Positions 14,121 through 32,713 of a stretch of DNA of 64,000 bases are shown here, one piece after another (position 1 is the stretch's first letter; each line of letters opens with the position of its first letter). Source of the DNA: an uncultured Flavobacterium sp. (GTDB lineage: Bacteria > Bacteroidota > Bacteroidia > Flavobacteriales > Flavobacteriaceae); assembly GCA_963511795.1 (NCBI GenBank), contig CAUPKP010000013.1, positions 9,279 through 73,278 on the forward strand, given 5' to 3'. The notes beneath the pieces were generated by a model that saw nothing but the letters and a program-made list of their open reading frames with translations, was not told the DNA's origin and searched no databases. The translations under genes were made by a program, and so were the position numbers.

Positions 14121-14951
14121 ATGGATTGGATAACTGCCAAAGAATTTGAAGATATAACTTATAAAAAATGCAATGGTGTTGCCAGAATTGCATTTAACAG
14201 ACCTAATGTACGCAACGCTTTTAGACCAAAAACAACGTCCGAATTATATCAGGCATTTTATGATGCTCAAGAAGATACTTCTATCGGGGTAGTTTTACTT
14301 TCTGCGGAAGGTCCTTCTTCTAAGGATGGTGTATATTCATTTTGCAGCGGAGGAGATCAAAATGCCCGGGGACATCAAGGCTATGTAGGGGAGGATGGAC
14401 AGCATCGGTTGAATATTCTTGAAGTGCAGCGTTTAATTCGTTTTATGCCTAAAGTAGTAATTGCAGTAGTTCCTGGTTGGGCTGTTGGCGGCGGACACAG
14501 TTTACACGTAGTTTGTGATATGACTTTGGCGAGTAAAGAACATGCTATTTTTAAACAAACGGATGCTGATGTAACTAGCTTTGACGGTGGATATGGCTCT
14601 GCTTATCTAGCGAAAATGGTTGGTCAGAAAAAAGCGCGTGAAATTTTCTTTTTAGGTCGAAATTATTCTGCTCAAGAAGCTTTTGAGATGGGTATGGTAA
14701 ATGCGGTTATTCCGCATGATGAGTTAGAAGATACTGCCTATCAATGGGCTCAGGAAGTTTTGGGTAAATCTCCTATGGCGATCAAAATGCTCAAATTTGC
14801 TATGAACCTTACTGATGATGGTATGGTAGGACAGCAAGTATTTGCTGGAGAAGCAACAAGGTTAGCTTATATGACAGAAGAGGCTAAAGAAGGCAGAAAT
14901 GCTTTTCTTGAAAAGCGCAAGCCAAATTTTGAGAAAAAATGGCTGCCATAA
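14121..14951 (+). CDS. menB: 1,4-dihydroxy-2-naphthoyl-CoA synthase
   Basis: RPNVRNAF, FCSGGDQ, VGGGHSLH, SFDGGYGS, EEAKEGRNAF.EKR.P. Confidence 0.97.
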   Translation: MDWITAKEFEDITYKKCNGVARIAFNRPNVRNAFRPKTTSELYQAFYDAQEDTSIGVVLLSAEGPSSKDGVYSFCSGGDQNARGHQGYVGEDGQHRLNILEVQRLIRFMPKVVIAVVPGWAVGGGHSLHVVCDMTLASKEHAIFKQTDADVTSFDGGYGSAYLAKMVGQKKAREIFFLGRNYSAQEAFEMGMVNAVIPHDELEDTAYQWAQEVLGKSPMAIKMLKFAMNLTDDGMVGQQVFAGEATRLAYMTEEAKEGRNAFLEKRKPNFEKKWLP

Positions 14952-17193: not shown

Positions 17194-18156
17194 ATGAAAC
17201 ACTGGATTGAAGCAGCAAGATTAAGAACATTACCGTTATCAGTTTCTGGAATAATTGTCGGAAGTATGTATGCACTGGCAAACCCTACTGAAAATGAACT
17301 CACACCATCAGAGAATTTTAGTTGGCAAATATTTGCTTTTGCATTATTAACAACTTTAGGATTGCAGGTGCTTTCTAATTTTGCTAATGATTACGGAGAC
17401 GGTGTAAAAGGTACCGACAATGAAGACAGAGTAGGGCCTAAGCGTGCCATTCAAAGCGGTGTGATTACACCGCAAGCCATGAAAAAAGCTTTGGTTATTA
17501 CATCAGTGCTTACATTGTTTTCGGCAGTATTCCTGATTTATGTAGCTTTTGGAGAGAGTAATCTTGTTTATTCTTTATTTTATTTAGGGTTAGGGATTTT
17601 AGCTATTGCTTCTGCAATTCGTTATACTGTTGGGAGTTCGGCTTACGGATATCGTGGATATGGCGATATTTTTGTATTTGTGTTTTTTGGATTGGTAAGT
17701 ACTTTGGGGGTTAATTTTCTGTATTCAAAACAATTGGATTTGGTACTTATTTTACCAGCTGTAGCAATTGGTTTATTGAGTGTAGGTGTTCTGAATTTGA
17801 ATAATATGCGTGACCAAGCTTCGGATGCTAAATCAGGAAAGAATACCGTTGTAGTGAAAATAGGTGCCGAAGCAGCAAAAAAATACCATTTCTTCTTAAT
17901 TATTGGTGCTATGGTTTCGGTTTTATTTTTTGCAGTATTAAGTGGTTTTAAGTTCGATCAATATTTATTTTTATTGGCATACATTCCGCTAACGAAGCAT
18001 TTAATTACAGTTTCCAAAAATCAAAACCCAAAATTACTTGATCCCGAGTTAAAGAAAGTGGCATTAAGCACCTTTTTGTTATCCATATTATTGTCATTAT
18101 GTATGATTTCATTGATTTCTGATCTTATTGTGAATATTTTCTTAGGAGGAAGATAG
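17194..18156 (+). CDS. menA: 1,4-dihydroxy-2-naphthoate prenyltransferase
   Basis: ARLRTLP, NFANDYGD..KGTD, NNMRD..SD..SGKNT; UbiA family. Confidence 0.95.
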   Translation: MKHWIEAARLRTLPLSVSGIIVGSMYALANPTENELTPSENFSWQIFAFALLTTLGLQVLSNFANDYGDGVKGTDNEDRVGPKRAIQSGVITPQAMKKALVITSVLTLFSAVFLIYVAFGESNLVYSLFYLGLGILAIASAIRYTVGSSAYGYRGYGDIFVFVFFGLVSTLGVNFLYSKQLDLVLILPAVAIGLLSVGVLNLNNMRDQASDAKSGKNTVVVKIGAEAAKKYHFFLIIGAMVSVLFFAVLSGFKFDQYLFLLAYIPLTKHLITVSKNQNPKLLDPELKKVALSTFLLSILLSLCMISLISDLIVNIFLGGR

Positions 18157-20720: not shown

Positions 20721-21764
20721 ATGTTTGCATCCTACCACAAATACATACTAAATTTCAAACATCCATCAGGAACTTCCCGTGGTGTGATGACCGAAAAAGA
20801 AACCTGGTTTATCGTTTTGGAAAAAGACGGTAAAAAAGGAATAGGTGAGTGCGGTATTTTGAGAGGTTTGAGTATTGACGATCGTCCTGATTATGAAGAA
20901 AAACTAAAATGGACTTGCGACAATATTCATCTTGGCAAAGACCAGCTTTGGGAAGCGTTATTAGAGTTTCCTTCAATTCAGTTTGGAGTCGAAATGGCGT
21001 TCCTGTCTTTGGCTAGTGAAAATCCTTTTTTACTCTTTCCTTCTAGCTTTACAAATGGTAAAAAATCAATCGCAATAAACGGGTTGGTCTGGATGGGAGA
21101 AGAGGCTTTTATGAAGCAGCAAATTGAAGAGAAATTAGCCGATGGATTTCGATGTATAAAACTTAAAATTGGAGCCATAGATTTTGAGAAAGAACTGCAA
21201 TTATTGCGTTATATTCGACAACATTTTAGTTCAGACCAGGTTGAAATAAGGGTCGATGCTAATGGTGCTTTTGATTCAAATGAAGCTTTATTTAAGATAA
21301 CACAATTAACTGAATTTAAATTACATAGCATAGAGCAACCGATTCAAAAAAACAACACTGACAGTATGGCAGAGCTGTGTAAAACCACTCCTTTTCCTAT
21401 TGCTTTGGATGAAGAGCTGATTGGAGTGTTTACTGTTACGGAGAAAGAAGATTTACTGATTAAAATCCAACCGCAATACATCATTTTGAAGCCTAGTTTT
21501 GTGGGTGGATTTCGTGGTACACAAGAGTGGATTTCGTTAGCTGAAAAGCATCATATTGGGTGGTGGATTACCTCCGCTTTAGAAAGTAATATTGGACTGA
21601 ATGCAATCGCACAATGGACATTTACACTTAATAATACGATGCCACAAGGATTAGGAACCGGAGCTTTATACACTAATAATTTTGATTGTCCTTTACAGGT
21701 TTCAAAAGGTCAGTTATGGTACAGTAGTGAGTTGAATTGGGACTTTGATATTGATGCATTTTAA
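20721..21764 (+). CDS. menC: o-succinylbenzoate synthase
   Basis: Enolase superfamily: IKLKIG, RVDANG, SIEQP, ALDEEL, ILKPS, TSALES; in a men cluster. Confidence 0.92.
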   Translation: MFASYHKYILNFKHPSGTSRGVMTEKETWFIVLEKDGKKGIGECGILRGLSIDDRPDYEEKLKWTCDNIHLGKDQLWEALLEFPSIQFGVEMAFLSLASENPFLLFPSSFTNGKKSIAINGLVWMGEEAFMKQQIEEKLADGFRCIKLKIGAIDFEKELQLLRYIRQHFSSDQVEIRVDANGAFDSNEALFKITQLTEFKLHSIEQPIQKNNTDSMAELCKTTPFPIALDEELIGVFTVTEKEDLLIKIQPQYIILKPSFVGGFRGTQEWISLAEKHHIGWWITSALESNIGLNAIAQWTFTLNNTMPQGLGTGALYTNNFDCPLQVSKGQLWYSSELNWDFDIDAF

Positions 21765-21999: not shown

Positions 22000-22557
22000 T
22001 TAATAAGGCAATACTCTTTTGTTTTTTGCTTCTTCCAAAAGTTCGGCTACGGCCAAATAAAAGGCACTGCTTCCACAAATTACACCAATTGCTCCAGCAA
22101 CCGGGGCTAAAGATTCGATACCAGTGAATTTTTCTACAGCTAAAACAAAAAACAAAACAGTCAAGGATAGAAATACAAATTGCTGTACTTTGCTTCCTCC
22201 CCAGGTTCCCCACCACATAAAAGCGGTAAAAATACCCCAAAGAGTTAAGTAACACCCGAAAAAGGGTGCTGGAGTTTTTCCTGCCATTTCAAATCCGGTA
22301 TTTGGAAAAAGCCAAACGCCAACTAAGGTTAGCCAAAAGAAGCCATAAGAAGTAAAAGCAGTTCCTGCAAATGTTTTTCCGTTTTTATAAGATAGTATTC
22401 CTGCGATTATTTGGGCTAGACCACCATAAAAAATTCCCATTGAAATAATTACGGCACTTACTGGGAAAAATCCCAAGTTGTGAATGTTTAATAAAATTGT
22501 GGTCATTCCGAAACCCAAAAGGCCTAAAGGTGCAGGATTAGCTAATTTGTTTTCCAT
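22000..22557 (-). CDS. satP: Acetate/succinate uptake transporter (GPR1/FUN34/YaaH family)
   Basis: LANPAPLGLLGFGMTT signature; 6 TM. Confidence 0.93.
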   Translation of the reverse strand: MENKLANPAPLGLLGFGMTTILLNIHNLGFFPVSAVIISMGIFYGGLAQIIAGILSYKNGKTFAGTAFTSYGFFWLTLVGVWLFPNTGFEMAGKTPAPFFGCYLTLWGIFTAFMWWGTWGGSKVQQFVFLSLTVLFFVLAVEKFTGIESLAPVAGAIGVICGSSAFYLAVAELLEEAKNKRVLPY

Positions 22558-22680: not shown

Positions 22681-23358
22681 TTAAGCGTCTAAATCCAAAC
22701 CAAAAGTGGTTCGCAATAATTCAATATTTGGATTTATTTCCAATAGGCGATTGTAGCGGTCTTGATCGGTAAAGCTTCTTTTGATGTCTATGCTTTCATT
22801 GACGGCCACTTCAATAGTAATGTCGTGATTGTGCAAATGACCGCGCAAGTGTCCCAAAAGACCAATCATTTCCTTTTCAAAATCTAATTTAGAACCTTCG
22901 TTGGGTAATTCGAAGGTGATTTTTGTACCGTTTAGTTTCGGATCATTAATTAGCAATAAGGATTCCATTATTTTATATCCTTTACTTCCAAGACGTTCTG
23001 CATATTTTGTCCATTGCAGAAGCATTTCGGTTTCTGTAAATGATTCAGTTGGAAGTATAGTGTTGTCTTCTTTAACAAATCCTTTTAAATTTTCTTCTAA
23101 AGCTTTTTTAGCTCGAATACTGGAAAGTGATAATGCTGAAAACTTGGTTTCGTTGCTTGGAGGAGCTGAAACTACTGGATTTGGAGTTTTCGGTTTTTCC
23201 TCTATTGGTGCAACAGGTTTAGCAATTTCAGTGTTTGAAACTGTTTTTGGAGTTTCTGGAGTAACAGGAATTTGGCTTTTCTCTTTTGAAACTTCAGCTA
23301 TCGAATAATCTGCAGTTTTTCTAAAATAAGTGGGTGGAATTATAAATTGCTCAACTTT
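22681..23358 (-). CDS. dnaX: C-terminal part of DNA polymerase III tau, reached by a -1 shift from dnaX
   Basis: The -1 frame is open from the A10 run (KVEQFIIPPTYFRK...P/T/E-rich linker...EMLLQW) to the stop at 22681; the track's 114 aa ORF is its distal end. Confidence 0.8.
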   Translation of the reverse strand, partial: KVEQFIIPPTYFRKTADYSIAEVSKEKSQIPVTPETPKTVSNTEIAKPVAPIEEKPKTPNPVVSAPPSNETKFSALSLSSIRAKKALEENLKGFVKEDNTILPTESFTETEMLLQWTKYAERLGSKGYKIMESLLLINDPKLNGTKITFELPNEGSKLDFEKEMIGLLGHLRGHLHNHDITIEVAVNESIDIKRSFTDQDRYNRLLEINPNIELLRTTFGLDLDA

Positions 23359-24425
23359 TTTTTTTCTCCATCATAAGAGATAGAGGCAAGCTGCATTAAG
23401 CAAAGTTCGACAAGCAGTCGCTGATTCTGGCTTGCTTTGTATTTTAAATCGCAATCATTTGCAATTTCGATTCCTTTTAATAAAAAGTCCTGACTGCATT
23501 TTTGGGCTTGAATTCCATACATTTTTTGAGCTTGCTCGCCAACTTCCAATAAAACAAGGGTTGAAGGTGTTTTGCTTACCAATAAATCTCTGAAATGACT
23601 GGCTAATCCAGAAACAAAGTGATGGCTGTCGAAGCCTTTTGCAAGAATATCATTAAACGCCATCAATAAGTCCGGGATTTTATTTTCCAGAATTAAATCG
23701 GTAACATTTATGTATGTTTCGTAATCTAAAACATTTAAGTTCTCGGTAACAGCCTGACGGGTTAGGTTATTTCCGCAAAAAGAAACCACTCTGTCAAAAA
23801 TAGACAAAGCATCGCGCATGGCGCCATCTGCCTTTTGGGCAATAATATGAAGCGCGTCATCTTCAAAAGCGACTCCTTGACTTGTTGCAACATCGGCAAG
23901 ATGTTCTTTAGCATCTTTTACGGTAATTCTTTTGAAATCAAATATCTGGCAACGCGATAATATCGTTGGTATAATCTTGTGTTTTTCGGTGGTTGCTAAT
24001 ATAAAAATGGCATGTTTTGGCGGTTCTTCCAATGTTTTCAAAAAAGCATTAAAAGCCGCAGAAGATAACATATGCACCTCGTCAATGATATATACTTTGT
24101 ATTGTCCTGTTTGTGGAGGAATACGAACTTGATCAATTAAATTTCGAATATCATCTACGGAATTATTAGATGCAGCATCGAGTTCGAATACATTAAAAGC
24201 AAAATCTTCATTTGGATCATCATATCCTGGCTGATTTATTTTTCGAGCCAGAATACGGGCGCAGGTTGTTTTTCCGACACCACGAGGACCTGTGAATAAA
24301 AGAGCTGAAGCTAAATGATTGCTTTCTATGGCATTAAGTAAAGTATTGGTAATCGCTTTTTGTCCCACCACATCTTTAAATGTCTGGGGACGATATTTAC
24401 GAGCCGATACTACAAATTGTTCCAT
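23340..24425 (-). CDS. dnaX: DNA polymerase III subunit gamma/tau, zero-frame (gamma-length) product
   Basis: ARKYRP, GPRGVGKTT, ELDAASN, IIDEVHML, TILSRC; ends DGEKKKLSNL* at 361 aa. Confidence 0.97.
   Translation of the reverse strand: MEQFVVSARKYRPQTFKDVVGQKAITNTLLNAIESNHLASALLFTGPRGVGKTTCARILARKINQPGYDDPNEDFAFNVFELDAASNNSVDDIRNLIDQVRIPPQTGQYKVYIIDEVHMLSSAAFNAFLKTLEEPPKHAIFILATTEKHKIIPTILSRCQIFDFKRITVKDAKEHLADVATSQGVAFEDDALHIIAQKADGAMRDALSIFDRVVSFCGNNLTRQAVTENLNVLDYETYINVTDLILENKIPDLLMAFNDILAKGFDSHHFVSGLASHFRDLLVSKTPSTLVLLEVGEQAQKMYGIQAQKCSQDFLLKGIEIANDCDLKYKASQNQRLLVELCLMQLASISYDGEKKKLSNL
23356..23365 (-). other. Slippery site: A10 run containing in-frame A_AAA_AAG
   Basis: Minus strand GGA GAA AAA AAA AAG TTG AGC AAT TTA TAA. 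Confidence 0.75.
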
Positions 24426-24444
24426 GTTTTTCTTTATTCGAAAG

Positions 24445-24475
24445 CAAATATAGGATTTGAAAATTCAAAAAACAA
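24445..24475 (-). promoter_or_regulatory. Bacteroidota sigma-A promoter of dnaX
   Basis: TTG-N20-TATATTTG on the minus strand, ending 19 bp before the ATG. Confidence 0.75.
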
Positions 24476-24602
24476 GTTCCGAAATTTTAATTTTTTTCAG
24501 TTGTTGATTTCCAATAAAATATAAGATAATTCGCTTTTTAGTGATTACATTTATGTATTTTCACGGAACTTTTATTTCCTGTGTTTATAAACTGGCTTTT
24601 AT

Positions 24603-25736
24603 ATGAATGTTTCAAAGAGAATTGTAATTGTCGGAGGAGGATTAGCTGGACTTACAGCAGCTATACATTTGTCTAAAATTGGATTAAAAGTAATTTTAAT
24701 TGAAAAAAACGAATATCCAAAGCATAAAGTATGCGGAGAGTATATTTCAAACGAAATTTTGCCATACTTTAATTGGCTTTCACTAGATATTTCTGAATTA
24801 AATCCTACTCAAATTTCAAAACTGGATTTCTCAACTGCTGATGGGAAAAGGATTCACTGTGATTTACCGCTTGGCGGTTTTGGAGTGAGCCGTTATGCTT
24901 TGGATGATTTTCTTTATAAAAAAGCAATACAAAATGGCTGTGAAATTATTCAGGACAGTGTGGATGATATTGTTTATAAAAATGAGATTCATACAATTTC
25001 GACTTTAAGCAATGGAATTTTTACTTCGGAAATTGTGATTGGAGCTTTTGGGAAACGATCTATTATTGATCTAAAATTAAAAAGAGAATTTATTCAAAAA
25101 AAATCGTATTGGCTGGCTGTGAAAGCTCATTATTCGGGTGTTTTTCCAAATGATTTAGTTGGACTGCATAATTTTGAAGGAGGATATTGCGGGGTTTCAA
25201 AAGTAGAAAATGATGCAGTGAATATTTGTTATCTGGCCAGTTATGACTCTTTCAAAAAATATAAAAATACAGATGAGTATCAAAATCATGTTGTTGCTGT
25301 AAATCCGCATTTAAAATCGATTTTTGAAAATAGTAAAATGATTTTTGAAGCGCCGTTAACTATTAGTCAAGTGTCATTTGATAAAAAAAACTTGATAGAA
25401 AATCATATTCTGATGATTGGAGATACTGCGGGTTTAATTCATCCTTTGTGCGGAAACGGTATGGCTATGGCGATTCATAGTGCAAAAATTATTTCTGAAT
25501 TGATAGGAAAATTTTATAACAATGAAATAAAATCGAGAGAAAAATTGGAAAAGAGATATTTAAAGGAATGGAACTTGAATTTTAAAATAAGGTTAAGAAT
25601 GGGGCGATTTTTAGTATTTATATTGCAAAAACAAAAAACTAGTGCTTTTTTGATGAAAATAATGATTAAATTCCCAAAGTTATTGCCAATTATAATAAAA
25701 CGAACTCACGGTCAGTTATTAGTTATGAATGAATAG
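24603..25736 (+). CDS. FAD-dependent oxidoreductase (geranylgeranyl-reductase/aromatic hydroxylase superfamily)
   Basis: IVGGGLAG...IEK Rossmann motif, HKVCGE, IGDTAGLIHPLCGNGM. Confidence 0.88.
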   Translation: MNVSKRIVIVGGGLAGLTAAIHLSKIGLKVILIEKNEYPKHKVCGEYISNEILPYFNWLSLDISELNPTQISKLDFSTADGKRIHCDLPLGGFGVSRYALDDFLYKKAIQNGCEIIQDSVDDIVYKNEIHTISTLSNGIFTSEIVIGAFGKRSIIDLKLKREFIQKKSYWLAVKAHYSGVFPNDLVGLHNFEGGYCGVSKVENDAVNICYLASYDSFKKYKNTDEYQNHVVAVNPHLKSIFENSKMIFEAPLTISQVSFDKKNLIENHILMIGDTAGLIHPLCGNGMAMAIHSAKIISELIGKFYNNEIKSREKLEKRYLKEWNLNFKIRLRMGRFLVFILQKQKTSAFLMKIMIKFPKLLPIIIKRTHGQLLVMNE

Positions 25737-25781
25737 CAAAATAAAATTTTCAGATTATAATATGGACAAATAAAAAGATAG

Positions 25782-26492
25782 ATGTTTATACAAACCAAGC
25801 ATAGAACTGATGATCCAGAAATAATGGATGATTTTGATTTGGAAGGTGATGTTTTGAAAGAATCACTTGACAAAATCGCAAAAATAAATCAGCTTTTGGG
25901 AGGGAATAAACTGACTTTAAAAGGCGTCAAGAAATTGCTTAAAAAAGTTCCTAATCTAAGTCTGATTACCATAGTTGATGTAGGCTGCGGTAATGGAGAT
26001 ATGCTGCGTAAATTAGCTGACTTTGGTTTTGAAAATAATTTAAGTTTGGAATTAATAGGTATTGATGCTAATGATTTTACTGTAAATTATGCAGTTGATT
26101 TGTCTATAAAATATCCAAATATCACATATAGATGTCAAGATATTTTTGACGAATCTTTCAGTGAGATAAAATATGATATTGTACTGTGTACATTAACGTT
26201 GCATCATTTTAAAAATAACGAAATTAACAAGTTGCTAACTGTTTTTTATGCTAATTCAAAACTTGGCTTCGTTGTCAATGATTTACACCGAAGTATTATT
26301 GCATATCGATTGTTTCAAGCGGTTTGTTTTGTATTTCAACTGAATGAAATGTCGCGGAAAGATGGATTGACTTCTATTTTGAGAGGATTTAAAAAGCATG
26401 AATTAATTGCGTTTTCAGAAAATTTAAAATTTAAAAAATATAGTATTCAATGGAAGTGGGCATTCCGATATCAATGGATAATTGAAAAATAA
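25782..26492 (+). CDS. SAM-dependent methyltransferase
   Basis: VDVGCGNG, IGIDAN, LTLHHF. Confidence 0.9.
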   Translation: MFIQTKHRTDDPEIMDDFDLEGDVLKESLDKIAKINQLLGGNKLTLKGVKKLLKKVPNLSLITIVDVGCGNGDMLRKLADFGFENNLSLELIGIDANDFTVNYAVDLSIKYPNITYRCQDIFDESFSEIKYDIVLCTLTLHHFKNNEINKLLTVFYANSKLGFVVNDLHRSIIAYRLFQAVCFVFQLNEMSRKDGLTSILRGFKKHELIAFSENLKFKKYSIQWKWAFRYQWIIEK

Positions 26493-26540
26493 AACAGGTT
26501 TAGATTTTATTGATTTCAAATATAACTATCAAATGAAATT

Positions 26541-27593
26541 ATGAGCGTAAAAATAAAATGTGTTGCTAAGCAATTGCCGAAGTTTTCAAGAACTACTGAG
26601 GAGATTCTTCCATTTTTGGATGTTTGGTTAGAAGGGCAGGAAGAACGTTTTATTCGAAAAGTAAAGAAAATATTTGAGGGAGCAGAGGTAGATAAGCGTT
26701 ATTCTATAATGGATCCGATTTCGGTTTTTGAAAACACTTCATTTGAACAGAAAAATGATATTTATATCAGGGAAGTAATTGATTTAGGAGAGAAAGTCTT
26801 GGATAAGGCTTTAAAAAAAGCGCTGTGGCAGCCAGAGGATTTGGATTATATCATCACGGTAAGCTGTACAGGCATTATGATTCCTTCTTTAGACGCTTAT
26901 TTGATTAACAGTTTGAAACTCCGTCAGGATATAGTAAGGCTGCCGGTTACAGAAATGGGTTGTGCGGCAGGAATTTCGGGGATTATATATGCAAAGAATT
27001 TTCTTAAGGCTAATCCTGGTAAAAAAGCGGCTGTTATTGCTATCGAAAGTCCGACAGCTACGTTTCAATTGGATGATTTTTCGATGGCAAATATTGTAAG
27101 CGCTGCTATTTTTGGTGATGGAGCAGCTTGTGTTTTACTTTCGTCAGTGGAAGAGGAAGAAGGTGTGGAAATTTTAGATGAAGAGATGTATCATTTTTAT
27201 AACAAAATTGATATGATGGGTTTTAAACTTACTAATTCAGGGTTGCAGATGATTTTAGATATTGAAGTTCCAGAAACTATTGCTTCTCACTTCGATGCTA
27301 TTGTGCATCCTTTTCTGCAAAAAAATAATTTAGAGATAGCAGATATTAGTCACTTGATTTTTCATCCGGGAGGAAAAAAAATTATACAAATCGTCGAAGA
27401 ACTGTTTTCTGGCTATGGAAAAAATATTGATGATACTAAAGAAGTTTTAAAACTATACGGCAATATGTCCAGTGCGACTGTATTGTATGTTTTAGAGCGA
27501 TTTATGGATAAAAATCCTGAAAAAGGTTCTAAGGGCTTGATGCTGAGTTTTGGTCCGGGATTTTCGGCTCAAAGAGTTTTATTGCAGTTTTAG
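26541..27593 (+). CDS. Type III polyketide synthase (chalcone/stilbene synthase family)
   Basis: Catalytic triad EMGCAAG (Cys), IFHPGG (His), YGNMSS (Asn); FGDGAA, SFGPGF. Confidence 0.95.
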   Translation: MSVKIKCVAKQLPKFSRTTEEILPFLDVWLEGQEERFIRKVKKIFEGAEVDKRYSIMDPISVFENTSFEQKNDIYIREVIDLGEKVLDKALKKALWQPEDLDYIITVSCTGIMIPSLDAYLINSLKLRQDIVRLPVTEMGCAAGISGIIYAKNFLKANPGKKAAVIAIESPTATFQLDDFSMANIVSAAIFGDGAACVLLSSVEEEEGVEILDEEMYHFYNKIDMMGFKLTNSGLQMILDIEVPETIASHFDAIVHPFLQKNNLEIADISHLIFHPGGKKIIQIVEELFSGYGKNIDDTKEVLKLYGNMSSATVLYVLERFMDKNPEKGSKGLMLSFGPGFSAQRVLLQF

Positions 27594-27612
27594 AATGAAT
27601 TTTAGTTGAAAG

Positions 27613-28044
27613 ATGGAAAAAATAGATATAATTTCAAGATTGCCTTATTCCAAACCGTTTTTGTTTGTTGATGAAATAATAAGGATTGATGAAGATGGAG
27701 TGGAAGGTGAGTTTACTTTTGATGAGAATCTTGATTTTTATAAAGGTCATTTCAAAGAGAATCCAGTTACGCCGGGAGTAATTCTAACGGAGGTTATGGC
27801 TCAGATTGGGCTAGTTTGTCTGGGTATTTTTTTGTTGAATGATGAATTTAGTAAAATATCAGTAATTGCCTTAACATCAGTTGCTATTGATTTTTTAAAA
27901 CCTGTTTTTCCAAACGAAAAAGTAACTGTGATTTCTGAAAAAATCTATTTTAGATTTGGAAAATTAAAATGCAAGGTAAGCATGAAAAATGAAAAGGATG
28001 AAATAGTCTGCAGCGGTGTAATTGCTGGAATTATGACATTTTAA
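27613..28044 (+). CDS. FabA/FabZ-like 3-hydroxyacyl-ACP dehydratase
   Basis: LPY..PFLFVD, GHF...PV.PGV...E.MAQ. Confidence 0.9.
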   Translation: MEKIDIISRLPYSKPFLFVDEIIRIDEDGVEGEFTFDENLDFYKGHFKENPVTPGVILTEVMAQIGLVCLGIFLLNDEFSKISVIALTSVAIDFLKPVFPNEKVTVISEKIYFRFGKLKCKVSMKNEKDEIVCSGVIAGIMTF

Positions 28045-28141
28045 TATTTAAATCTATAAAAGAAAGCAGCAATAGTTAATCTGAGTATTATTTAAAATTG
28101 CCATTGAAATTGCAGTTGATATTAAAAATTACAATATAAAA

Positions 28142-29416
28142 ATGAAAAATCGAGTTGTTATAACGGGTCTAGGCGTTGTTGCTCCAAATGGAGTAGGGCT
28201 TGATGCGTTTCAGCATGCGATAAAAAATGGAATTTCAGGAATAAGGCATTTTGAGGAATTGGAAAGATTAAAATTTTCATGCCAAATTGCAGGAATGCCA
28301 GACGTATCAACCGAACTGGCATTGCGATATTTTACAGAGCTGGAACTTAAGAATTTTAATTCTACAGGTATTTTATATGGTGTAATTGCAGGAATTGATG
28401 CTTGGAAAGATGCTGGTTTATCAATGGAGCGATTTGATGAACCCGATTGGGACAGCGGTACTATTTTTGGCTCTGGAACTTCTGGAATTGATAAATTTCG
28501 GGAGAGTATTTATAAGATAGACGATTTTAAAGTTCGGAATTTAGGAAGCACTTCAGTAATTCAAACAATGAACAGTGGTGTCAGTGCTTATTTAGGTGGC
28601 AAATTAGGATTGGGTAATCTAGTAACTTCAAATTCTTCGGCCTGTACGACTGGAACTGAAAGTATTATTCTAGGATATGAACGCATTAAGTCAGGGCAGG
28701 CTAAACGTATTTTGGCAGGAAGCACAAGTGATTCAGGGCCTTATATCTGGGGAGGATTTGACGCAATGCGGGTCTGTACTTATAAACACAATCAATCACC
28801 GGAAACAGGATCCAGGCCGATGTCAGCCAGCGCATCGGGATTTGTTCCGGCAAGCGGAGCAGGAGCTTTAGTTTTGGAAGATATGGAAACGGCTTTGGCA
28901 CGTGGAGCAAGAATATATGTAGAAGTGTTAGGAGGAGCCTTGAATTCTGGCGGACAACGTGGATTAGGAACATTGACAGCGCCAAATCCTGTGGCTGTTC
29001 AAAAATGTATTCAAAGCGCGATGATAAATGCAGGAATTACGGGTAAGGATATTGATGCTATTAATGGCCATCTTACAGCAACCGTTAAGGATGGTTTGGA
29101 AATTTTAAACTGGAGTAAGGCATTAAACCGAAATGGAATTGATTTTCCTTATATAAATTCGCTGAAATCGACTGTTGGACATTGTTTGTCAGCAGCGGGA
29201 AGTATTGAAAGCGTAGCTACGGTTTTACAGCTATATCATGGATTTGTATTTCCGAATCGGAATTGTGAAGATCTGCATCCGGAAATTGAAGCAATTATTG
29301 ATTCTTCCAGAATTCCTTTGAAACTAATCGAAACCGATTTGAATATTATTTTAAAGGCCAGTTTTGGTTTTGGAGATGTGAATGGATGTGTCGCTTTTAA
29401 AAAAATAATATCTTAG
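28142..29416 (+). CDS. Beta-ketoacyl-ACP synthase (FabF/FabB-like)
   Basis: RVVITGLG, SSACTTG (Cys), INGHLTAT (His), KSTVGHCLSAAG (His), SFGFG. Confidence 0.93.
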   Translation: MKNRVVITGLGVVAPNGVGLDAFQHAIKNGISGIRHFEELERLKFSCQIAGMPDVSTELALRYFTELELKNFNSTGILYGVIAGIDAWKDAGLSMERFDEPDWDSGTIFGSGTSGIDKFRESIYKIDDFKVRNLGSTSVIQTMNSGVSAYLGGKLGLGNLVTSNSSACTTGTESIILGYERIKSGQAKRILAGSTSDSGPYIWGGFDAMRVCTYKHNQSPETGSRPMSASASGFVPASGAGALVLEDMETALARGARIYVEVLGGALNSGGQRGLGTLTAPNPVAVQKCIQSAMINAGITGKDIDAINGHLTATVKDGLEILNWSKALNRNGIDFPYINSLKSTVGHCLSAAGSIESVATVLQLYHGFVFPNRNCEDLHPEIEAIIDSSRIPLKLIETDLNIILKASFGFGDVNGCVAFKKIIS

Positions 29417-29457
29417 TGATTTTAATATTAGATAGTTAATGTAAAAAAGATGATTTT

Positions 29458-29712
29458 ATGGATAGAGAACAAGCATTCGAGCAGTTAAAAAATATAGTGA
29501 AGCCTTATGTTCAAGATCAGGCAGCTTTTGAAACTATTTCTGAGGAAACAGATTTTATAAATGATTTAAAAATAAATTCGGCTAATCTGGTTGATGTGAT
29601 CTTGGATATTGAAGAAAAGTTTGATATCATAATCGATAACGAAGCAATGAAGCAGATGGTTAACGTAAAAGAAGCTATCGCCATTATTGAAACTGAATTG
29701 TTAAAAGAATGA
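29458..29712 (+). CDS. Acyl carrier protein
   Basis: 84 aa acidic protein; DLKINSANLVDVILDIEEKFDI (Ser attachment site in NS rather than DS context). Confidence 0.9.
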   Translation: MDREQAFEQLKNIVKPYVQDQAAFETISEETDFINDLKINSANLVDVILDIEEKFDIIIDNEAMKQMVNVKEAIAIIETELLKE

Positions 29713-30194
29713 TTGGGAATGACATTGTTGATCTAGATTTAGCCCGAAAAGAAAGCAATTGGAGAAGAAAAGGCTTTTTGGAGAAAATATTTTCCCAACA
29801 GGAGCAAAATTTGATTCTGAATGCTTTAAATCCAGAACTTATGGTTTGGAACTTATGGAGCAGAAAAGAAGCTGCTTATAAAATTTATAATCGCTTTACC
29901 GGGATAAAAGGTTATTTTCCCTGGTTGCTGCAGTGCTGTTATGATGATGAAAACACGGGAAAAGTTATGATTGATGATTTTGTTTTTCATACCAATACAG
30001 AAATAACGAATGCTTATATTTATACTATTGCTGTTTCTAAAAAGGCTTTTTTTTCAAAAATAAAACCTCTAGAAACAGCAGAAAATATAAAAAAGACCAA
30101 TGGAATACCTTATATTCTGGATGATTTTACGAATGCAGTTCAGCCAGTTTCTAAAACTCATCACGGACGTTTCCAAAAGATAATTTCGCTGTAG
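29709..30194 (+). CDS. 4'-phosphopantetheinyl transferase (ACPS superfamily)
   Basis: IGNDIVD and WSRKEAAYK motifs; overlaps the ACP stop. Confidence 0.9.
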   Translation: MIGNDIVDLDLARKESNWRRKGFLEKIFSQQEQNLILNALNPELMVWNLWSRKEAAYKIYNRFTGIKGYFPWLLQCCYDDENTGKVMIDDFVFHTNTEITNAYIYTIAVSKKAFFSKIKPLETAENIKKTNGIPYILDDFTNAVQPVSKTHHGRFQKIISL

Positions 30195-30197
30195 AAA

Positions 30198-30794
30198 TTA
30201 TTTAATTCCTAATTTCTTCTTCAGTGTTAAGAACAATAAAGCAATTGTATATGCATTTTCTGAAGGGGAATTGCGGTAGCTTTTTGGGAGTTTAAAGATT
30301 TCTGACAGTTCGTCCAGTGAAAACTGTTTGTCATTGATATCCATCAGTTTTCGGTACATCACATCAATATCCAACGCCTCATTTTTTAATCGGCCACAGC
30401 TGGATCTTGCCAAAGCACTATTGATCATGTCAACATCAAAATCAACATGATGTCCTATTAAAACAGCATTTCCGATATAATCTATAAATGCATGCATGGC
30501 TTCCGGCTCATTCAATTTTTTCATTTTGCTTTCCAGAATGAATTCATTCGAAAGTCCGTTGTCATGAAAATATTTGTACTGCAGAAGAACAGCTTCAAAA
30601 TTATCACCTATATAGATTCTATTGTTAACTATGGCAAAGGAACCAATGGATAAAATAACATCCTTTTCGGGGTTTAAACCAGAAGTTTCTGTTGTAAATA
30701 CAACATAGCGATTTGGTTTCTGATCAAACTTAGCAAGATAAGTTTTCCAAAATTCAGGGTGTTCTTTATTTATATTTTTTAGCCAATCCAGCAT
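30198..30794 (-). CDS. DnaQ/PolC-like 3'-5' exonuclease-fold protein, catalytically degenerate
   Basis: FTTETSGL (ExoI Asp replaced by Thr), GHHVDFD (ExoII), RNSPSENA (ExoIII His and Asp absent). Confidence 0.8.
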   Translation of the reverse strand: MLDWLKNINKEHPEFWKTYLAKFDQKPNRYVVFTTETSGLNPEKDVILSIGSFAIVNNRIYIGDNFEAVLLQYKYFHDNGLSNEFILESKMKKLNEPEAMHAFIDYIGNAVLIGHHVDFDVDMINSALARSSCGRLKNEALDIDVMYRKLMDINDKQFSLDELSEIFKLPKSYRNSPSENAYTIALLFLTLKKKLGIK

Positions 30795-30796
30795 CT

Positions 30797-32713
30797 TTAT
30801 GAAAATTGCGTTAGTTTGAAATTACTTTTAATTAATTCTTCTAATTCTCTCATTGGGGCTAAGGCATTCTTTAATTTTTCTTTTTCTAATTTATTCAATT
30901 CGCTCAGATTGATATATTGCCCTGCATTTTCATTTTTTAAACCCTCATTCACTCTAAACTTGGATAAGGTTAAGAATGCTTCAGCACAGTTTAGGTAAAT
31001 ATCAGCATTTTTAGAATCAATAATTGCTAATTGCTTGAAACGTAAATAGGTATTATTAAGTCCTTTGATTTTAAAATGAAGTGCAAATAATCGTGCTCCG
31101 TCAATAAGAGGCATTAAAGCTCTGGTTTTTATATCAAATTTATCTTTATGCGGTTCGTCTTCTTCTACTGCAAATTTCTTGAAAAATGTAAGAGGGGAAT
31201 TTTTTCTTAAAGCGTCATTTCCGAGGAAATCAAAGAACAAAGTGTTTTGTTCCAAATCTTTCAGAATGATATTTTCTATAGTTTCGAATATTTTTTTCTC
31301 GCCAAAAACAAGTTCTAAGTCAAAGAAAATACTGCTTAGGTCATTGCTGTTTTCACCTGGAGCATTCATCCAGCTGTTGTATTGTTTAGTCCAGTCTGTC
31401 AATGATTTACACCAAAGCATATTGCTCGCCATATGACCATTTGGACATAATTCATAACCAACTTTTTCCAAAGTTGAAGTAGTCCTTTTTCCTAATTTCA
31501 AAAAGTAATCTCTTACATCTCTGTATTTTTCCGGAGCAACATCTTCAAAGACTAAAATGCTGTCTTGATCAGTAAGCAGCAACTGTTCTTTTCTTCCTTG
31601 GCTTCCTATGCTCAGCCACACAAAACGAGCAGGAGGAGAGCCTAATTCTAAAATTGACAATTCGACTGCTCGTTTTAAAATTGCAAGGTTTATTTCGCTT
31701 GTAATATTGTTTATGTTGGAAAGCGGAATGTTTTTATGAATTGAATTCTGAATCAGTTCCGTTAAGCGGTCTCTTAGATTTTTTAGATCTTTACCATTAG
31801 AAGCTCGTTTAATTTCTTTGATTAAAACACCAGGATTATTTGCTTGGGCAGTAATCAGATCGTGTTCAGAAATCATTCCTTTAACAGCAGATTTGTCTGT
31901 TCCGTCCAAAGTAACACATAAATGGGTTACATTATTTTTTAGCATTATGAGCTGCGCTTCAGCTAGTGAGATATTTTCAACAACTGTTACTACAGGTGAA
32001 GACATGATTGCTTTCATGGTAACAGTTAACGGAAACAGCCCTGTGGCAATTTTGGAACACATATCCGTGTGGGTCACAATTCCGATAGGTAACTTGTTAT
32101 CGCAAATCACAGCACTGGTCGATAAATTTTCGGTCATCAAGAGCGCAACATCTTTAACGGAGTCATTGATAGTTACAGTAATTGGTGTTCTGTTATAGGT
32201 TAGAGACTGGAAATACTGCATTTCAGCTTTTTGATCTATATAAAACACATTGTCATTAGACAGTTTTTCTCTTAAGTTTTCTTTTTCTTTTGGATGCCAG
32301 GTATTTGTTGCAAAACTTTCCAAAAGAAAGTTCAGCACATCTGGATTATTGGCTACAAATGGTCTGAATGTCGCAATAGGAATAGCATATACGATAGATT
32401 CTTCACGGGATTTAGCCGTCATCATGTAATTGTTTTTAGCAAAAAACGGTCTTAGTCCAAAAACATCACCAGCGTGACATTTATTTAAAAGTGTTTCTTC
32501 AGCATCTGCAATGACTGATAAATTTACCGTTCCAGTAGCAACAACATAGAAGCAATCGTGAAGTTTATCGTCTATTTGAAATAAAGTTTCGTTTTTTTCT
32601 AAATTTAAAACCCTAATATTTGTAGCGATTGCTGACAGTTCCTGAAAAGTCAAGTTGTCAAAAGGCGGATATACCTTTAAAAAATCAGCAATATTCTCTG
32701 CAATTGTATTCAT
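30797..32713 (-). CDS. cNMP-binding / CBS-pair / DUF294 nucleotidyltransferase protein
   Basis: N-terminal cNMP-binding domain (GDVFG.R), CBS pair, GSQGRKEQLLLTDQD NTase motif, C-terminal FDIK.RAL.P..DGAR. Confidence 0.9.
   Translation of the reverse strand: MNTIAENIADFLKVYPPFDNLTFQELSAIATNIRVLNLEKNETLFQIDDKLHDCFYVVATGTVNLSVIADAEETLLNKCHAGDVFGLRPFFAKNNYMMTAKSREESIVYAIPIATFRPFVANNPDVLNFLLESFATNTWHPKEKENLREKLSNDNVFYIDQKAEMQYFQSLTYNRTPITVTINDSVKDVALLMTENLSTSAVICDNKLPIGIVTHTDMCSKIATGLFPLTVTMKAIMSSPVVTVVENISLAEAQLIMLKNNVTHLCVTLDGTDKSAVKGMISEHDLITAQANNPGVLIKEIKRASNGKDLKNLRDRLTELIQNSIHKNIPLSNINNITSEINLAILKRAVELSILELGSPPARFVWLSIGSQGRKEQLLLTDQDSILVFEDVAPEKYRDVRDYFLKLGKRTTSTLEKVGYELCPNGHMASNMLWCKSLTDWTKQYNSWMNAPGENSNDLSSIFFDLELVFGEKKIFETIENIILKDLEQNTLFFDFLGNDALRKNSPLTFFKKFAVEEDEPHKDKFDIKTRALMPLIDGARLFALHFKIKGLNNTYLRFKQLAIIDSKNADIYLNCAEAFLTLSKFRVNEGLKNENAGQYINLSELNKLEKEKLKNALAPMRELEELIKSNFKLTQFS

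Follow-up and report, generated by a model that had tools for sequence, protein, structure and literature searches.

A conserved Flavobacterium operon that probably couples a discrete fatty-acid-like module to a type III polyketide synthase

Operons that combine a type III polyketide synthase (PKS) with a methyltransferase (MT) and an oxidoreductase give rise to alkylresorcinol-derived lipids in Streptomyces, Mycobacterium, cyanobacteria and Planctomycetota (PMC10896814, PMC9927152). Characterised analogues of the cluster described here are srsABC and pkqABC (PMC9927152), hidABC and a planctomycete operon (PMC10896814), and CepAB of Entotheonella, as cited in PMC7313196. Direct transfer of an acyl chain from the acyl carrier protein (ACP) of a fatty acid synthase (FAS) to a type III PKS was established for ArsA/ArsB (Miyanaga 2008, as cited in PMC3098273). 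As described in these sources, none of the characterised analogues contains a discrete set of β-ketoacyl-ACP synthase (KAS), dehydratase (DH), ACP and 4'-phosphopantetheinyl transferase (PPTase), with or without an enoyl reductase (ER). Such a set adjoins a type III PKS in the block of seven genes described here, which occupies positions 24603-30194 of a stretch of 64,000 nucleotides, called the window below, from an uncultured Flavobacterium sp. (GenBank assembly GCA_963511795.1, contig CAUPKP010000013.1, positions 9,279 to 73,278 of the forward strand). Type III PKS clusters make up 9% of the biosynthetic gene clusters reported in Flavobacteriaceae and are among the commonest there (PMC7440613); flavobacterial ones gave no match in MIBiG, and a novel product was assumed (PMC9860996). 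A literature search returned no paper characterising the flavobacterial cluster, no characterised equivalent and no reported product, in agreement with an earlier note on this DNA, made from the sequence alone, which had called the product unknown.

The operon and its private acyl module

The block is read as a single operon in which a private acyl module would supply the type III PKS, the resulting alkylresorcinol or alkylpyrone then being methylated and modified by a flavin enzyme; this reading is considered probable. That the fatty-acid-like module and the PKS act together is best supported by their joint distribution. In a sample of 401 evenly drawn Bacteroidota genomes, with orthologues defined by at least 67% identity for the PKS and at least 57% for the KAS, PKS orthologues were found in 27 genomes, namely 13 of 16 Flavobacterium, 10 of 13 from other Flavobacteriaceae genera, and four of a single genus (g59) belonging to a different family. 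KAS orthologues were found in exactly these 27, on the same contig and 1.5-3.6 kb from the PKS, and neither gene has an orthologue in the other six Flavobacteriaceae sampled. The proposal of the earlier note that a private ACP/KAS/DH/PPTase module is tied to the PKS thus appears to hold, as far as genome sequences can tell. In g59 the PKS is 77-79% identical and the operon has the seven-gene form; it was probably transferred from Flavobacterium, both halves moving together.

Species representatives of GTDB were scanned with a six-sequence PKS alignment as query, which revealed PKS relatives in at least 584 of them. The gene content of the best 80 loci was read; nearly all are from Flavobacterium, with Kaistella gelatinilytica and Myroides guanonis in addition. 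Together with 17 loci from whole genomes these form the 97 orthologous loci referred to below. The order found in the window (FAD oxidoreductase, MT, PKS, DH, KAS, ACP, PPTase; FAD, flavin adenine dinucleotide) is the same in all 80 species-level loci, as read by tblastn with the seven window proteins, and in the 17 genome-derived ones. Genes are missing from the 80 loci only at contig ends, except for the PPTase, which is absent in two; it is also missing in some of the eight-gene relatives described below (L018, L077, L098, L105, L108). Since the order is kept across relatives, the seven-gene block is a real operon and not a chance arrangement.

In the window the seven open reading frames (ORFs) all lie on the + strand and their boundaries are exact (Table 1). 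The gaps between them measure, 5' to 3', 45, 48, 19, 97 and 41 bp up to the ACP gene, whose last 4 bp are shared with the PPTase gene. The co-oriented genes, their families and their boundaries (ORF list, Pfam, NCBIfam) are as the earlier note had given them, and its flanks were likewise recovered, with dnaX on one side, the exonuclease on the other, and MenB, MenA and MenC 3-10 kb upstream. No ketoreductase (KR), ER, exporter or regulator is found inside the block in the window. Counts of sigma-70 and Bacteroidetes -7 (TAnnTTTG) promoter motifs and of terminators equal those in shuffled sequence, without enrichment, and no promoter was mapped.

Table 1. Positions of the operon genes and of the flanking features in the window
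Feature	Position	Strand	Length	Description and basis
MenB	14121-14951			Upstream flank
MenA	17194-18156			Upstream flank
MenC	20721-21764			Upstream flank
dnaX	23340-24425	-		Upstream, divergent from the block
Putative promoter region	24426-24602		177 bp	Divergent gap between dnaX and the first gene; sequence
FAD-dependent oxidoreductase	24603-25736	+	377 aa	Group-A flavoprotein fold, like geranylgeranyl reductase (GGR); NCBIfam/Pfam, model
Methyltransferase	25782-26492	+	236 aa	Class I, dependent on S-adenosylmethionine (SAM); Methyltransf_25/31/11 above cut-off
Type III PKS	26541-27593	+	350 aa	Chal_sti_synt_N and _C above cut-off
FabZ-like 3-hydroxyacyl-ACP dehydratase	27613-28044	+	143 aa	FabA/FabZ hotdog; PF07977 above cut-off
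Elongating β-ketoacyl-ACP synthase	28142-29416	+	424 aa	Cys-His-His; ketoacyl-synt N and C above cut-off
Dedicated ACP	29458-29712	+	84 aa	N-S instead of D-S attachment motif; PP-binding above cut-off
4'-phosphopantetheinyl transferase	29709-30194	+	161 aa	AcpS-type; PF01648 47.6 bits, above cut-off; ATGA overlap
RNase_T-fold exonuclease	30198-30794	-		Downstream, convergent
Exonuclease and DUF294 nucleotidyltransferase pair	30198-32713	-		Downstream of the block

The module consists of proteins that match their broad families and fall outside the housekeeping subfamilies. The DH has FabZ as its top PDB match, scores below the cut-offs of the FabZ equivalogs, and keeps H46 and E60 invariant in 97 loci. 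The KAS scores below the cut-offs of both the FabF and the FabB models, has PDB matches of about 1e-52 to each, and is placed by its sequence on a deep branch of KAS I/II; its C168, H310 and H347 are invariant in the orthologous loci (88-97 loci in the catalytic-residue check). The ACP is below the cut-offs of the AcpP models, with S41 invariant in 93 loci, and D5 and E54 of the PPTase are invariant in 88. The operon KAS is 31% identical to the housekeeping fabF, the only other KAS I/II of the genome, and no tblastn similarity at 1e-4 was detected between the operon ACP and the housekeeping AcpP of the same genome; the module is therefore an extra, private copy. It does not form a complete type II FAS cycle. 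All 97 loci are without a KR and without a FabD-like (malonyl transferase) gene, the ER is missing in the window, and the module must borrow FabG and FabD.

The PKS is a member of the type III family by its chalcone synthase N- and C-terminal domains (PF00195, 68.8 bits; PF02797, 66.3 bits; both cut-offs 27) and by its Cys-His-Asn triad, C141/H275/N308, which is invariant in 17 diverse relatives and in the 97 orthologues. The catalytic residues of the PKS and the KAS, which the earlier note had described as intact, are thus conserved throughout. The best solved relatives are Pks11 of M. tuberculosis (1e-48) and CylI (1e-38), of which the former takes long-chain acyl starters and the latter an ACP-bound starter (PMC8086630). 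Proteins of Flavobacterium sp. A45 and an uncultured Flavobacterium share 96% identity with the window PKS. In the search against all proteins the highest score went to a protein of 4818 aa that contains 12 separate type III PKS-like stretches (25% identity) and may be a fused or mis-called tandem array from another organism.

An additional gene was found in most other genera. A short-chain dehydrogenase/reductase (SDR) of 255-280 aa lies between the PKS and the DH in seven of the seven other Flavobacteriaceae genera read, as well as in a genome of another family (G039), in Kaistella and in two Flavobacterium-like metagenome-assembled genomes (MAGs). In some of these eight-gene relatives its start overlaps the PKS stop; in Kaistella (L098) the overlaps are 1 nt for FAD/MT, 4 nt for MT/PKS and 7 nt for PKS/SDR, and the SDR abuts the DH, a pattern of translational coupling. 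Its best NCBIfam match is FabL, below cut-off, and among solved structures FabL of B. subtilis (3oic) comes closest. The motif NY(G/A)AVSxAK corresponds to the Tyr-x6-Lys dyad of enoyl-ACP reductases, not to the YxxxK of FabG, and aligns with the dyad of FabL, so that the protein is assigned as a putative FabL-type (Y-x6-K) enoyl-ACP reductase. Its presence in relatives indicates that the module is reducing and FAS-like, and the ancestral operon appears to have encoded KAS, DH, ER, ACP and PPTase. The gene is missing in 77 of the 80 closest, Flavobacterium-type loci, and no orthologue was found elsewhere in the genome of the window. The statement of the earlier note that the cluster has no enoyl reductase is therefore true of the window, where it reflects a secondary loss; it does not extend to the operon at large. 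In G039 (L018:7477-10143) a DUF7793 (SpoIIAA-like) protein and a PAS-domain histidine kinase stand between the PKS and ER-DH-KAS-ACP and could be a dedicated regulator.

The cassette is also found where the PKS is absent. KAS homologues of 48-54% identity are present in 13 of the sampled genomes, which belong to other orders and another class and have no orthologous type III PKS. Six of the 13 were read; the order DH-KAS-ACP is kept in all six, with the ER in front in five and a PPTase after it in two. Two of the genomes carry the cassette behind genes for a serine-palmitoyltransferase-like alpha-oxoamine synthase (AOS; NF047600, 607 bits, cut-off 640), for an NAD-epimerase-type reductase and for a conserved protein of unknown function, about 375 aa long. 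These operons, L118:3959-11327 (G254) and L122:8214-14247 (G238), have the form ER-DH-KAS(-KAS)-ACP and may serve a pathway of sphingolipid or aminolipid type that has an acyl-ACP supply of its own. In two further genomes the same ~375-aa protein precedes the cassette; beyond this protein one of them has a family-2 glycosyltransferase (GT2), and in the other a GT2-like gene stands downstream of the ACP. The ~375-aa protein has a weak GNAT match and a 43%-identical homologue in the genome of the window (contig C2:69129-70199). From its gene content, the ER-DH-KAS-ACP cassette looks like a portable, private acyl-ACP supply that is joined to different lipid-building consumers, and this coupling elsewhere supports the PKS as the consumer in Flavobacteriaceae.

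Conservation and history of the operon

All seven genes are under purifying selection. The ratio of nonsynonymous to synonymous substitution rates (dN/dS) against four relatives is 0.03-0.18. The PKS is the most conserved (mean identity to the window over the 80 loci 83%, dN/dS 0.03-0.06), followed by KAS (78%), DH (73%), MT (67%), FAD oxidoreductase (64%) and ACP (62%); the PPTase is the least conserved (53%) and is still constrained (dN/dS 0.12-0.18). Among same-genus genomes a PKS orthologue is present in 16 of 24 (77-85% identity), and in one genome of another family in the order it is present at 64%.

The earlier note took the block to be inserted between dnaX and the exonuclease gene, which is not borne out by the relatives. 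The dnaX/menC flank is common to the nearest four of the 80 loci only, and the exonuclease/DUF294 flank to 48; the block is old, ancestral to Flavobacteriaceae and no strain-specific insertion. Its GC content equals that of the flanks, so that nothing points to a recent foreign insertion. A recent horizontal island was considered and rejected, given the GC content, the fall of PKS identity with taxonomic distance, and the downstream flank kept in those 48 loci.

Several observations were made on single loci. Between the window and L022 the synonymous divergence (dS) is 0.5-1.1 for the FAD oxidoreductase, MT and PKS genes and 0.24-0.38 for DH, KAS, ACP and PPTase, whereas against L021 it is 0.6-1.2 throughout; the contrast suggests recombination between strains inside the operon. 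The FAD oxidoreductase gene of Flavobacterium omnivorum (L040:7181-8293) contains one in-frame stop, and the KAS gene of one other genus (G202:C11:90679-91941) one internal TAA; either may reflect occasional decay or a sequencing error. In the window the dnaX frame stops at 361 aa and is followed by a separate ORF of 114 aa on the same strand without Pfam match (22681-24425, - strand). Also upstream of the operon in the window is a GPR1/FUN34/YaaH (SatP-type) permease (22000-22557, - strand). In Kaistella (L098:4883-6790) an acetyl-CoA synthetase lies directly upstream of the operon, and an unannotated ORF of 635 aa has the same length and position in the Flavobacterium MAG L094 (5133-7040). 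With these genes and the exonuclease/DUF294 pair downstream in 48 of 80 loci, the neighbourhood of the operon is often related to acetate.

Proposed pathway and alternative readings

In the proposed pathway the PPTase would convert the dedicated ACP to its holo form. The Cys-His-His KAS would condense an acyl primer, probably an acyl-ACP from the housekeeping FAS II, with malonyl units on the private ACP. The keto group would be reduced by the housekeeping FabG, which is invoked because no relative has a KR, and the intermediate would be dehydrated by the private FabZ-like DH. Saturation would be carried out by the FabL-type ER of the operon in most Flavobacteriaceae genera; in Flavobacterium loci without it, either a housekeeping ER would act or the double bond would stay. 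The acyl-ACP, insulated from primary metabolism, would then serve as starter for the type III PKS, which would add two or three malonyl-CoA and cyclise the chain to a 5-alkylresorcinol (or alkylresorcylic acid) or an alkylpyrone. The MT would methylate the ring and the FAD enzyme, facing the membrane, would oxidise or reduce it. The end product would be an envelope lipid of methylated alkyl-(hydro)quinone-like or methoxy-alkylphenol type.

The tailoring enzymes were examined in more than one way. In NCBIfam the FAD protein scores best with TIGR02032, a geranylgeranyl-reductase subfamily, at 109 bits and below the cut-off of 159; UbiH-type matches are weaker, and PF01494 scores 33.7 bits. With its AlphaFold model (pLDDT 86) a fold search scored halogenases, 3-hydroxybenzoate 6-hydroxylase (3HB6H), UbiI and GGR about equally. 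Cys44, in the motif K-V-C-G-E and of GGR type, and D274 of the GD motif are invariant among the orthologous loci, Phe or Tyr at position 149 stands in place of the DG-motif Asp, and dN/dS is 0.13-0.17. A role as halogenase was ruled out, the WxWxIP motif being missing at the aligned position. The protein is best described as a putative tailoring enzyme, either a ring hydroxylase or a C=C reductase. The MT matches NF004851/PRK06202 over its full length at 126 bits, below cut-off; its SAM motif D66-x-G68-x-G70 is invariant in 97 loci and its dN/dS is 0.06-0.10. The neighbours of the nearest PKS representatives were used as a proxy for SrsB/C, PkqB/C and HidA/B. Outside Flavobacteriales the closest PKS representatives have 39-46% identity. 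Where the context sufficed, three of them lie among Srs/Pkq-like genes that include a PF01494 flavoprotein and, in two cases, a UbiE-type methyltransferase; one further representative has no tailoring gene adjoining. DH, KAS and ACP were found beside none of those with context. The window FAD protein is about 22% identical to two of the PF01494 flavoproteins and has no match to the third, and a BLAST comparison of the window MT with the UbiE-type methyltransferases gave none at E<=0.01. The analogy to SrsABC drawn by the earlier note is therefore one of enzyme class; no orthology to the proxy enzymes was detectable.

Several points weigh against the proposed pathway. The FAD enzyme looks like no canonical aromatic hydroxylase, in view of its best family, its replaced DG Asp and the undecided fold search, and neither for it nor for the MT is orthology detectable with the tailoring enzymes that adjoin the closest relatives of the PKS. 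Phe rather than Trp appears at the PKS position equated with ArsB W281, so that the product may be a resorcinol or a pyrone, and acceptance of acyl-ACP by this PKS clade is not readable from sequence. Genes for a KR, a malonyl transferase, a loading enzyme and an acyl ligase are missing from the cluster, so that the priming of the ACP is wholly inferred.

It is possible, though not likely, that the product is an alkylpyrone or its methyl ether, comparable to BpsAB of Bacillus and Negativicutes, and not a resorcinol or quinone. The closest solved relative, Pks11, is deposited as a PKS of alpha-pyrone synthesis. Pyrone-forming ArsC has Gly at the position of ArsB Trp281. Trp281 itself is described as conserved in the resorcinol-forming ArsB and PkqA (PMC9927152), and the window PKS has Phe at the equated position, F228, which is invariant in 97 loci. 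O-methylation of pyrones by methyltransferases encoded beside type III PKSs is also known (PMC8730385, PMC9827899). However, Phe is still bulky, unlike Gly, and leans towards a resorcinol without being decisive; moreover, F228 was equated with W281 by an offset through W230 of Pks11 and not by an alignment with ArsB. Many such enzymes yield both product types in vitro, and the conserved flavoprotein is easier to explain by an oxidisable aromatic ring.

A rather unlikely alternative concerns the chain. The DH and KAS could act in the manner of FabA/FabB, FabN/FabO or a polyene type II PKS and provide an enoyl- or cis-unsaturated starter for an alkenyl-resorcinol or alkenyl-pyrone, the flavoprotein then acting on the C=C bond. 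The loss of the ER from 77 of the 80 Flavobacterium-type loci, compared with an ancestral cassette that had it, would fit such a pathway, as would the lack of an orthologue of the operon ER in the genome and the features of the FAD protein, with GGR as its best family, the Cys of K-x-C-G-E and a DG motif that is non-canonical for NAD(P)H-dependent hydroxylases. Yet the FAD gene is present equally in the eight-gene version and so is no replacement for the ER, the fold search scores hydroxylases and halogenases as high as GGR, and a housekeeping ER could work in trans, as FabG must. An isomerase activity of FabZ type is not predictable from sequence.

The earlier note had suggested a second redox carrier beside menaquinone. 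A polyketide quinone of this kind, by analogy with PkQ of mycobacteria and Streptomyces, would agree with the enzyme classes of pkqABC (PMC9927152), with the nearby MenB, MenA and MenC, and with the hydrophobic C-terminal helices predicted in the flavoprotein model, which suggest membrane association. The suggestion rested on the proximity of the men genes, and this is not conserved in relatives (3-4 of the 80 loci), so that the linkage is incidental. Furthermore, the nearest pkq-like relatives of the PKS are accompanied by tailoring enzymes that are not orthologous to those of the window, and the operon is lacking in roughly a fifth to a quarter of the genomes of Flavobacterium and the Flavobacteriaceae. 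An alternative respiratory carrier finds no backing in the gene context and is decidedly unlikely. The broader combination of a portable cassette with an undescribed phenolic lipid of the Flavobacteriaceae envelope, possibly a redox-active polyketide quinone in a phylum thought to be menaquinone-only, is regarded as doubtful.

It is highly improbable that FAD-MT-PKS, using ordinary acyl-CoA or acyl-ACP, and DH-KAS-ACP-PPTase, feeding another lipid, for example one of amino or sphingo type, are separate units that happen to adjoin: ER-DH-KAS-ACP does occur by Spt-like and other genes in the 13 genomes without the PKS, and a private FAS is dispensable for most of the bacterial type III PKS operons characterised so far (PMC10896814), but the halves co-occur and adjoin in 27 of 27 genomes, are jointly absent in six of six PKS-negative members of the family, are joined by tight or overlapping gaps at the PKS-(ER)-DH junction, and went together in the apparent transfer to g59.

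Comparison with known systems

If the reading of a private acyl module that supplies the PKS is correct, the operon would represent a new coupling of fatty acid and type III polyketide synthesis by discrete proteins, not by a type I FAS as in Ars, and would probably yield a new lipid in the envelope of bacteria that abound in fresh water, soil and the sea, fish-associated Flavobacterium among them. It would also offer a compact, orthogonal set of ACP, PPTase and KAS of possible use in engineering. The seven-gene and eight-gene versions form a natural contrast that would show the contribution of the enoyl reductase.

Among known systems, srsABC of Streptomyces griseus, pkqABC of Mycobacterium smegmatis and Streptomyces sp. 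MNU77, hidABC of picocyanobacteria and the MT-oxidoreductase-type III PKS operon of Planctomycetota likewise join a PKS, a SAM methyltransferase and an FAD oxidoreductase. Their chemistry, in which a long-chain alkylresorcinol is formed and then methylated and oxidised, would be expected here too. They differ from the present operon in having three genes, without private ACP, KAS, DH, ER or PPTase, and in gene order, which is FAD-MT-PKS in the window. PF01494 hydroxylases and UbiE-type methyltransferases accompany the PKS relatives that come nearest outside Flavobacteriales, at 41-46% identity. The arsABCD operon of Azotobacter vinelandii, responsible for the phenolic lipids of its cysts, also encodes a FAS that builds the chain and passes it from its ACP to type III PKSs. 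A FAS-like set in the same operon is found here as well, as KAS, DH, ACP and PPTase, with the FabL-type ER in relatives. However, ArsA and ArsD are large type I multidomain FASs, while the module of the window is of discrete type II and without KR or acyltransferase; the ars operon contains two PKSs and neither a methyltransferase nor a flavoprotein.

CylI of the cylindrocyclophane pathway and the germicidin synthase Gcs are type III PKSs that accept an ACP-tethered starter. The Cyl starter comes from a fatty acyl-AMP ligase, an ACP and type I PKS modules, Gcs draws on the primary FAS, and a private KAS/DH/ER cassette is present in neither pathway. The DarABC/flexirubin and aryl-polyene (APE) systems are pathways for lipid pigments in Bacteroidota that work with discrete ketosynthase (KS), DH and ACP proteins and likewise lead to resorcinol-containing lipids. 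The Dar route uses the FabH-like DarB and the aromatase DarA and no type III PKS, and APE clusters have pairs of KS and chain-length factor (CLF) and their own KR, none of which is present at the locus of the window. None of the seven proteins falls into the DarA or DarB families, and the sole other KAS I/II of the genome is the housekeeping fabF; the operon is distinct from the DarAB/flexirubin route, as the earlier note had it. In the Spt-linked cassettes L118 and L122 four genes are homologous and in the same order (identity 48-54% for KAS, about 48% for DH, 41-47% for ER), and the consumer is a pyridoxal phosphate-dependent AOS with the epimerase-type reductase and the ~375-aa protein instead of a type III PKS. 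By analogy, the logic of the operon would be that of a discrete type II counterpart of the hand-off from ArsA/ArsD to ArsB/ArsC, combined with tailoring in the style of Srs, Pkq and Hid. The kind of system is thus known, and what appears to be new is its link with a private FAS cassette of discrete proteins and the reuse of this cassette within the phylum.

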